In this document: positions 40,057 to 41,236 of the stretch, piece after piece
Layout: every line of letters starts with the position of its first letter
Position numbering within the stretch: position 1 is the stretch's first letter
IMG/VR virus record: IMGVR_UViG_2721755710_000002
Origin: a virus
Lineage: Duplodnaviria; Heunggongvirae; Uroviricota; Caudoviricetes
Length of the DNA: 44,549 nucleotides
Reading direction: 5' to 3' (one strand)
Position numbers and translations under genes: made by a program
The notes under the pieces: generated by a model
Seen by the model: the letters and a program-made list of their open reading frames with translations, nothing else
What the model was told of the DNA's origin: nothing
The model's database searches: none

Positions 40057-40830
40057 TCAAAAATTAGGTGAGTAACGGACCGGGGACATAGCTCCTTTTT
40101 TTCTTAATTCATCTGGTATTTTTTTTCCAAGATAAAGATTTGCTATTTCAGGTGGGGCTTCTCGACCTTCAAAACCATAGCGCGAACTTTGTGTTGCCTC
40201 AAAGTCAGGATCCTCGTCCCAGTATTTCAACGAAGGGAAATTTTCACGTGTTGATTTGAGCCATTTATCAGCAATGAAAACCCCTCGAACGATCCCCCTT
40301 ACAGTAGCAAGAATGATTTCTGCTTGGCTGGCGCGAGAGACATTAATGCGCCAGCTAAATCGAACCGCATCATAAAGCTCTGAATCCTTTGCACTTCTGT
40401 TAACGGATATCATTAATGCTTTATGATGAAATGTTATGGTTTCGGGCTGATATGTTGCTATCAACTCTTTGACATGCGCGGCGCCGAATTCATTGCTGCC
40501 AGCACCATTCATGATATTCGTTAACCCAGGGTAGGCATCAATAAGTGCTGCTTCAACTTCGTACGCCGTCTTTTCATCAGTCATTCCGTGTCGATGGATG
40601 ACATGGATAACTTCAAGTCCTGCTAACCTTATTTCTCTAATTTGCTTTAGCTTGTTGCTCAGTAACTCGTCATCATCAGTCGCTGCCACTTCACCGCGCA
40701 TATGGGCAAATACGCGGTTACCTTTGCCTTTCCCTACATAGAAGGTGCTTCCGTCCCTCGGATCAATCAATCGGTATACATACCAGCCAAGGTGTTCAAT
40801 TACTCCAGAAGGAAACTCAGTAATATCCAT
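40057..40830 (-). CDS. GIY-YIG nuclease-domain protein with unknown C-terminal domain
   Basis: N-terminal …[28 protein letters not shown]… fits the GIY-(10-11)-YVG…R…H pattern. Confidence 0.65.
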
Positions 40831-41236
40831 TTTGCAATATCTATGAAGAATTATTTGTGAGACGTATATTAATGATCATTGCAAGGGCTCACAACCAGTA
40901 GTGTTGAGAAAACCATCGGAGAAATGAGGCTAAGCCTTTGAATTTACATAGTACAAAAAAGATACTTTTCCTCATAATGTGAGCTAATTTTATGTTTCGT
41001 TTGATGATTGGACCGGTCTCGAAAACCGTAGACACATAGTATGCGTTAATTTATGAACAAACTACTTGTCTGCTGTTTTTCTGTCATTAGTCGTATATAG
41101 AATGATTCTCTATGCCTAACAAAGCATCACCAGTGCTAGATTACGTTGTAGTCACTGTTTAAATATCCAGATAAAACATTTCCTTCTGGGTTGAATGAGT
41201 GATAAAGTTTCACCCATTAGACCCCTTGGAGGAATT

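Follow-up and report, generated by a model that had tools for sequence, protein, structure and literature searches.

The 44,549-nt stretch of DNA analysed here in full (hereafter the window; Caudoviricetes, IMG/VR record IMGVR_UViG_2721755710_000002) carries near its right end a gene for a 257-residue GIY-YIG protein (40057..40830, minus strand) which, on sequence evidence, is almost certainly an intact copy of CMoRE/PD-T4-3, a type IV nuclease for DNA containing 5-hydroxymethylcytosine (5hmC) or glucosyl-5hmC, carried as prophage cargo. The initial annotation described the gene correctly as lying between the tail fibre and the restriction-modification (R-M) genes, which form an EcoRII-type pair, in agreement with the open reading frame (ORF) list, Pfam and PADLOC, and considered a homing endonuclease, a defence nuclease or a repair accessory substituting for Vsr; our analysis makes the second of these options precise. 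The family has already been characterized both biochemically and structurally, and the present gene is a near-identical copy of what is already known. Its RefSeq name is still ‘LEM-3-like GIY-YIG domain-containing protein’, and it can now be renamed CMoRE/PD-T4-3, a type IV restriction endonuclease dependent on 5hmC/ghmC.

The assignment relies on several concordant full-length matches. The ORF is intact over its 257 codons, with no disruption, and its product matches the PADLOC profile PD-T4-3 (PDLC04031) with an E-value of 7.6e-140, residues 1-256 falling on profile positions 1-255 of 256, as well as PHROG 5356 (E 5.7e-142). In phmmer searches against the PDB, it aligns without gaps over residues 1-257 to the chains of entries 9U75 and 9U8D (E 5e-171) and of 9U7U and 9U7Z (E 1.6e-150), whose titles read ‘5hmC specific restriction endonuclease ... 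PD-T4-3’. The GIY-YIG assignment is not a chance match, because of the E-value of 5e-171 to a PDB chain. Identity amounts to 97.3% with the Escherichia coli O157:H7 protein (9U75) and to 85.2% with the APEC O1 protein (9U7U). The seven substitutions relative to the former (T51A, E55D, Q169K, I172V, N197H, S200T and L201M) all fall outside the published functional residues. Among domain models, the LEM-3-like GIY-YIG family PF22945 is matched over residues 28-110 with 54.2 bits (cut-off 27), the canonical GIY-YIG family PF01541 stays below its threshold (13.8 bits versus 22.6), and a search of NCBIfam returned no model matching the protein. In a protein-collection search, 6548 clusters match the nuclease at E ≤ 1e-5. 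Full-length homologues sharing 37-45% identity also occur in jumbo phages that infect Serratia, Pectobacterium, Pantoea, Klebsiella and Pseudomonas (records H116-H132; for example, Serratia phage Moabite 6406-7161 and Pseudomonas phage OBP 158703-159449), where their labels read ‘putative homing nuclease’ or ‘endonuclease’; they may act as type IV enzymes directed at rival phages.

The nuclease motif is present, albeit not in the canonical form initially reported: it is a variant ‘GIYxY-YIG’, reading G15-W-Y17-V-Y19 ... F30-Y31-V-G33. No catalytic residue has been lost, and all the residues checked (Y17, Y19, Y31, R39, R80, V92, E93, L96, N105 and Y127) are in place. In an alignment of the nuclease with 81 full-length homologues (82 sequences in total, 53-98% identity), Y17, Y19, Y31, G33, R39, R80, E93, L96, N105, Y127, Y153, R157, W160 and W190 are invariant. 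Position 92 of the oligomer interface is V in 77 of the 82 sequences and I in the other five; together with the invariant L96, this indicates that the tetramer interface is kept, and the present protein is predicted to share this oligomeric state. The acidic autoinhibitory loop reads D52-D53-D54-E55, as in APEC O1 (DDDD in O157:H7), and contains three to seven D/E residues in every one of the 82 homologues. An AlphaFold2 model built on the same alignment (mean predicted local distance difference test score, pLDDT, 80.2; a single-sequence model with pLDDT 39.8 was unusable) displays two domains with a low-confidence linker between them, residues 101-115, in agreement with the missing density in the published crystals. 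The fold of the N-terminal domain matches UvrC, I-TevI, EndoII and Hpy188I in structure comparison. As for the C-terminal half, which had been described as an unrecognized domain, it corresponds to the published modification-sensing domain, with the 5hmC-contacting Y127 conserved.

PD-T4-3, originally recovered by Vassallo et al. (2022), was later renamed CMoRE in a study reporting that it lowers the plating of T2, T4 and T6 by about 1e5-fold without abortive infection (PMC12923530). According to this study, CMoRE binds and degrades 5hmC and glucosyl-5hmC DNA, does neither with DNA containing C or 5-methylcytosine (5mC), and leaves the host genome intact; it cuts at CN11/N9G, leaving 2-nt 3' overhangs, and requires two modified cytosines. 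Mutagenesis assigned catalysis to Y17, Y19 and Y31 together with a conserved Arg and Glu, and showed that V92/L96 are required both for the tetramer and for defence (PMC12923530). A 15-residue acidic loop with four consecutive acidic residues bars the enzyme from ordinary DNA, the 4A loop mutant being toxic and cleaving host DNA, and 5hm-dCTP is held on the C-terminal domain via the backbone of Y127 (PMC12923530). Cloned with its native promoter, CMoRE works alone (PMC12923530). In addition, a 48%-identical homologue degrades the DNA of T4 and Mu, though not that of T4-GT7 (PMC12366544), and a native E. coli host is protected against Tevenvirinae by a PD-T4-3 (bioRxiv 2024.12.20.629700).

The mechanism was established by experiment with the O157:H7 protein, which is 97% identical; here we infer it from near-identity. 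The nuclease would assemble as a tetramer, a dimer of dimers, whose C-terminal domains would bind 5hmC or glucosyl-5hmC, each dimer reading a pair of modified cytosines separated by about 21 bp. The GIY-YIG domain, with Mg2+ or Mn2+, would then cut between them (C N11 / N9 G), producing the 2-nt 3' overhangs. The acidic loop D52-E55, lying over the active site, should exclude unmodified host DNA and host DNA carrying 5mC (methylated by Dcm or M.EcoRII), so that no methyltransferase or immunity partner would be required. Incoming DNA of T-even-type phages would thus be destroyed directly and non-abortively. The present allele is accordingly expected, given its near-identity, to cleave 5hmC and 5ghmC DNA and to restrict T-even phages.

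Nothing found in the sequence contradicts the CMoRE/PD-T4-3 assignment, and the following points temper it. The activity of the allele WP_000355482.1 itself is deduced from proteins that are 97% and 85% identical. The APEC O1 allele protects weakly when expressed from its native promoter (PMC12923530), and the level of protection in the present host is uncertain for that reason. Upstream of the gene, strict and relaxed scans revealed no strong sigma-70 promoter and no recognizable Shine-Dalgarno sequence. Finally, the idea that EcoRII, cutting unmodified CCWGG, and CMoRE, cutting DNA with hypermodified cytosine, could form separate and complementary layers is our own inference; the two systems should at least be compatible, because CMoRE ignores 5mC.

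The strict promoter and terminator scan proposed no site at all for the nuclease gene. The relaxed scan yielded one weak candidate promoter (8/12), with a -35 element TTGTGA at 40894-40889, a spacer of 17 and a -10 element TAATAT at 40871-40866. A 7-bp inverted repeat, CTCACAA (40888-40894) / TTGTGAG (40855-40861), brackets this sole candidate; to see in it the operator of the nuclease gene would be pure speculation. The transcript would start from a weak promoter of its own within 40831-41021 and end at the hairpin of 39991-40040, for which RNA folding gives a free energy of -24.9 kcal/mol (z -4.4, equalled by 0 of 200 shuffles), with the U-run on the minus strand. A possible role of a 48-codon ORF in the same upstream region (40889..41035, minus strand) as partner or immunity gene was rejected: in the pinE context, a 1-nt deletion lies inside this ORF, and the literature describes a single-component system.

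By sequence comparison, the nuclease gene is an autonomous, moron-like cassette of about 1 kb (~39998-41044) occupying a variable slot flanked by the tail-fibre genes and attR (ssrA). We surveyed 5426 complete E. coli genomes, counting the gene at ≥ 95% identity. It is present in 837 genomes and is contiguous with the EcoRII pair in only 243 of them, including members of ST131 and ST361; about 590 of the 837 have no adjacent methyltransferase. The same cassette is found with pinE and a lipase gene, IS1 or EcoRII as neighbours, in keeping with a single-component system. In strain WCHEC115106, the identical protein follows the same tfa remnant with IS1 adjoining, and in e14-like prophages, including that of O157:H7, a 97%-identical cassette stands directly after pinE; homology with these two kinds of copies reaches 41031/41044. 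Conversely, strain EC0026B harbours a 99.9%-identical EcoRII cassette (locus L004, 3077-7900), starting at the equivalent of 41014, that lies downstream of a GGDEF gene in place of the nuclease, again with a tfa remnant upstream. The EcoRII cassette spans 41014-44175, and plasmid EcoRII systems are about 80% identical to it from 41155 onwards. Since each cassette occurs separately elsewhere, the two meet at 41014-41044, each with its own upstream DNA.

The borders of the nuclease cassette point in the same direction. Direct repeats of the terminator hairpin bound it at 39998-40020 and 41022-41044 (19/23 identical), and the repeat pattern has two matches in the window where none is expected. 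Where the cassette follows pinE, each of the two copies is a complete hairpin of ~40 nt (L003, 6003-6042 and 7027-7063), and strain ECOR29 exhibits a precise empty site, a single hairpin there separating pinE from the same right flank (L007, ~3243-3290). The presence/absence unit measures 1,024 bp and a contiguous match to the empty site was found in 103 genomes. This hairpin-bounded organization looks like modular cargo exchange at ‘linkers’. The slot after pinE also contains mcrA in the e14 prophage of strain K-12 (L008, 2688-4182) and CMoRE in a related e14-like prophage (L003, 5447-6835), that is, two unrelated type IV nucleases as alternative cargo at one site.

These separate histories bear directly on the possibility that the nuclease and EcoRII form one coupled three-gene island, either interdependent or co-regulated through the 406-bp spacer, for example by an autoregulatory N-terminal domain of M.EcoRII. 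The arrangement is indeed kept at 99-100% identity in the 243 genomes, the genes diverge across an AT-rich spacer, and the methyltransferase carries the N-terminal domain PF18284. However, one successful prophage lineage may account for the 243 genomes, the modules join at a hairpin-repeat junction (41014-41044) and have their own upstream DNA elsewhere, and CMoRE acts alone when cloned with its native promoter. We therefore regard such coupling as improbable. The AT-rich divergent promoter region proposed in the initial annotation holds as far as composition is concerned (35.5% GC for 40831..41236, versus 50.2% for the whole window); as a shared promoter it is conjectural, two independently mobile cassettes being juxtaposed here and the scans having found no strong sigma-70 consensus in the spacer.

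A free-standing GIY-YIG homing endonuclease, which would cut an unmodified target in prophages devoid of the gene and spread by repair copying, is still harder to reconcile with the data and appears very unlikely. The catalytic domain would suit such an enzyme, as would a weak match to PHROG 314 ‘homing endonuclease’ (E 0.0022), the ‘putative homing nuclease’ label of the jumbo-phage homologues at 37-45% identity, and the discrete 1,024-bp polymorphism with its precise empty sites. Yet unmodified DNA is neither bound nor cleaved by the 97%-identical enzyme, which spares the host genome, and the C-terminal half is a sensor of base modification; no NUMOD, zinc-finger or helix-turn-helix module was detected by Pfam at E up to 10 in the nuclease or its 81 homologues. 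The comparison of prophages with and without the gene, the latter suggested earlier as a way to recognize a homing insertion, places the cassette in no fewer than three unrelated flank contexts, near other cargo genes (GGDEF, AraC, mcrA), and shows a hairpin of ~23-40 nt that is duplicated at both borders and single at the empty site, which is not a homing footprint. The assignment to a well-characterized family of known function speaks against both this proposal and that of a Vsr substitute. The latter, an accessory nicking the T:G mismatches that arise by 5mC deamination in CCWGG, has in its favour only the position beside a Dcm-family methyltransferase gene and the lack of a vsr gene in the window, as rightly noted before (best tblastn E 1.1), and is scarcely credible: Vsr and the nuclease differ in fold and show no similarity (blastp E 2.3; Pfam finds GIY-YIG only), the characterized enzyme neither binds nor cleaves 5mC or unmodified DNA, linkage to a methyltransferase is not obligate (the EcoRII cassette also occurs without the nuclease), the match to plasmid EcoRII systems (~80%) takes in only the methyltransferase and the restriction gene, and no vsr is annotated within it, and vsr stands beside chromosomal dcm in 5367 of the 5426 E. 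coli genomes, so that repair is supplied in trans.

With CMoRE/PD-T4-3 as the preferred identity, the origin of its sensor can be considered. The C-terminal domain was published as having no structural homologue and was termed a distinct fold (PMC12923530), and Pfam searches at E up to 10 with the 82 family members gave no match for it, including to EVE, ASCH or YTH. Weak Foldseek matches include VcaM4I, a YTH domain and an ASCH-like protein; in structure comparison, the matches of this domain extend over 80-100 residues and outscore the true GIY-YIG relatives of the N-terminal domain (3.3-4.3). EVE-GIY-YIG fusions have been predicted earlier as type IV enzymes. One may tentatively propose, while considering it rather less probable than its opposite, a combined scenario in which the sensor is a cryptic, highly diverged reader of the PUA superfamily (EVE/YTH/ASCH-like) instead of a new fold, and in which the border hairpin (motif AAACCGYAGRCAC-N3-GTATGC) is a recombination ‘linker’ by which defence cargo (CMoRE, EcoRII, mcrA, GGDEF) is exchanged between unrelated E. 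coli prophages at their distal slots. If true, the PUA origin would place CMoRE in the large class of type IV enzymes that combine a nuclease with a PUA reader; neither this ancestry nor the hairpin linker would change the function of the gene. What is new here is mild, namely a cassette of modular build bounded by hairpins, and a sensor that may have PUA-like origins.

Table. Coordinates of the nuclease gene, its domains and its neighbours in the window
Feature	Position	Strand	Details and evidence
CMoRE/PD-T4-3 nuclease gene (putative)	40057..40830	-	257 aa, ATG start; RefSeq WP_000355482.1
GIY-YIG nuclease domain at the N terminus	40516..40830	-	PF22945, residue check, published mutagenesis, fold matches
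C-terminal modification-sensing domain, ~residues 118-257 (approximate bounds), including Y127	40060..40479	-	
Hairpin terminator just 3' of the stop codon	39991..40040	.	stem AAACCGCAGCACG / CGTGTCTGCGGTTT, then UUCUUUUUU on the minus strand
Own upstream (regulatory) region of the nuclease cassette	40831..41021	-	accompanies the gene in all contexts
Right flanking-repeat copy 41022-41044, degenerate hairpin with 41058-41082; GIY-YIG/EcoRII cassette junction	41022..41082	.	
Upstream region of the EcoRII methyltransferase, outside the nuclease cassette	41083..41236	+	homology with L004 from 41014, with plasmid EcoRII from 41155
M.EcoRII-type C5 cytosine methyltransferase (CCWGG family)	41237..42670	+	PF00145 E 4.7e-78; PF18284 E 7.1e-27; PRK10458 E 1.5e-279
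EcoRII-type restriction endonuclease	42705..43919	-	PF09217 EcoRII-N E 3.9e-61; PF09019 EcoRII-C E 2.4e-71; PADLOC REase_II E 1.9e-234
Lambda-Stf-like tail fibre, 1261 aa, C-terminal S74 chaperone	36019..39804		
tfa (tail-fibre assembly) C-terminal remnant	39853..39987	+	RefSeq pseudogene in the identical locus L001
ssrA (tmRNA), prophage attachment site	44148..44510	-	ARAGORN; Rfam tmRNA 295.8 bits; L001 annotation

The window is a complete lambdoid prophage, with an integrase (986..2152), an S24 repressor (4225..4899) and lom (35361..35960). The variable cargo slot at its right end begins at the tfa remnant, where homology to prophages lacking the gene ends at 39974, and the defence island forms the final cargo before attR (ssrA). 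The three cargo genes have a GC content of 42-45%, versus 51% for the remaining prophage. The two neighbours of the nuclease gene are convergent and correspond to an EcoRII type II(E) R-M system, with a Dcm-family methyltransferase and a two-domain EcoRII nuclease; the methyltransferase start coincides with that of RefSeq and is preceded by a GGAGG ribosome-binding site, and the methyltransferase itself has a PADLOC MTase_II match. Homology between the EcoRII cassette and that of L004, which is not located at ssrA, continues for 28 bp within ssrA, at its 3' end (44148-44175), which suggests that this stretch is phage-derived (attP). A search of positions 1-3000 of the window for a repeat of the 3' end of ssrA that would represent attL gave nothing convincing. 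An Rfam scan of 39700-44549 gave only the tmRNA above threshold, with no RNA element in the spacer. A sub-threshold hit to IS009 (39744-39944, plus strand; 81.5 bits versus a gathering score of 117), spanning the tail-fibre end and the tfa remnant, probably reflects mere homology to tfa DNA of K-12 prophages.

Elsewhere in the prophage, two overlapping ORFs of 182 and 308 residues (11701-12249 and 12236-13162, both on the minus strand) are opposed to the surrounding early and late genes. Neither has a Pfam or PADLOC match, and the larger belongs to PHROG 2802, of unknown function; the pair may be another moron or cargo module. The late region also encodes an apparently solitary N6/N4 DNA methyltransferase (13781-14833, plus strand; PF01555, PADLOC MTase_II E 3e-152).

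Taken with its EcoRII neighbours, the locus would be a prophage-borne two-layer barrier present in lineages including ST131, which bears on the choice of therapeutic T4-like phages.

The closest known systems are CMoRE of O157:H7 (WP_000355475.1; 9U75, 9U8D) and of APEC O1 (9U7U, 9U7Z), which have the same length as the present protein, are collinear with it over residues 1-257, share its catalytic, interface and 5hmC-contact residues, and are likewise single genes with a native promoter. The seven substitutions relative to the O157:H7 protein are conservative or of surface type. The context differs, the present gene lying after stf/tfa of an ssrA-integrated lambdoid prophage beside EcoRII and that of O157:H7 after pinE. 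McrA of the K-12 prophage e14 is an HNH nuclease, likewise a prophage-borne single-gene type IV enzyme and housed in the same slot after pinE, but it is annotated as a 5-methylcytosine-specific endonuclease and is unrelated to CMoRE in sequence. Vsr resembles CMoRE only as a small nuclease whose gene can adjoin that of a C5 methyltransferase, and differs from it in fold, sequence and substrate. EVE-HNH enzymes such as VcaM4I and the predicted EVE-GIY-YIG fusions, which pair a PUA-superfamily reader with a nuclease, differ from CMoRE in domain order and oligomeric state. Homing endonucleases of the I-TevI type, the GIY-YIG type II enzymes Eco29kI and Hpy188I, and the N-terminal domain of UvrC share with CMoRE the catalytic fold and the Tyr/Arg/Glu/Asn set, whereas CMoRE possesses in addition a third tyrosine and a 15-residue acidic lid insert, and reads a modification instead of a sequence. 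The PvuRts1I/AbaSI family acts on the same substrates, 5hmC and ghmC and not 5mC, and PvuRts1I, similar to CMoRE, places its cut at a set distance from two modified cytosines arranged symmetrically, leaving 2-nt 3' overhangs. Members of this family combine a Vsr-like PD-(D/E)XK nuclease domain with an SRA-like reader, in contrast to CMoRE, which couples a GIY-YIG nuclease to a reader without sequence match to known families. PvuRts1I has been cited as the functional analogue of CMoRE (PMC12923530).

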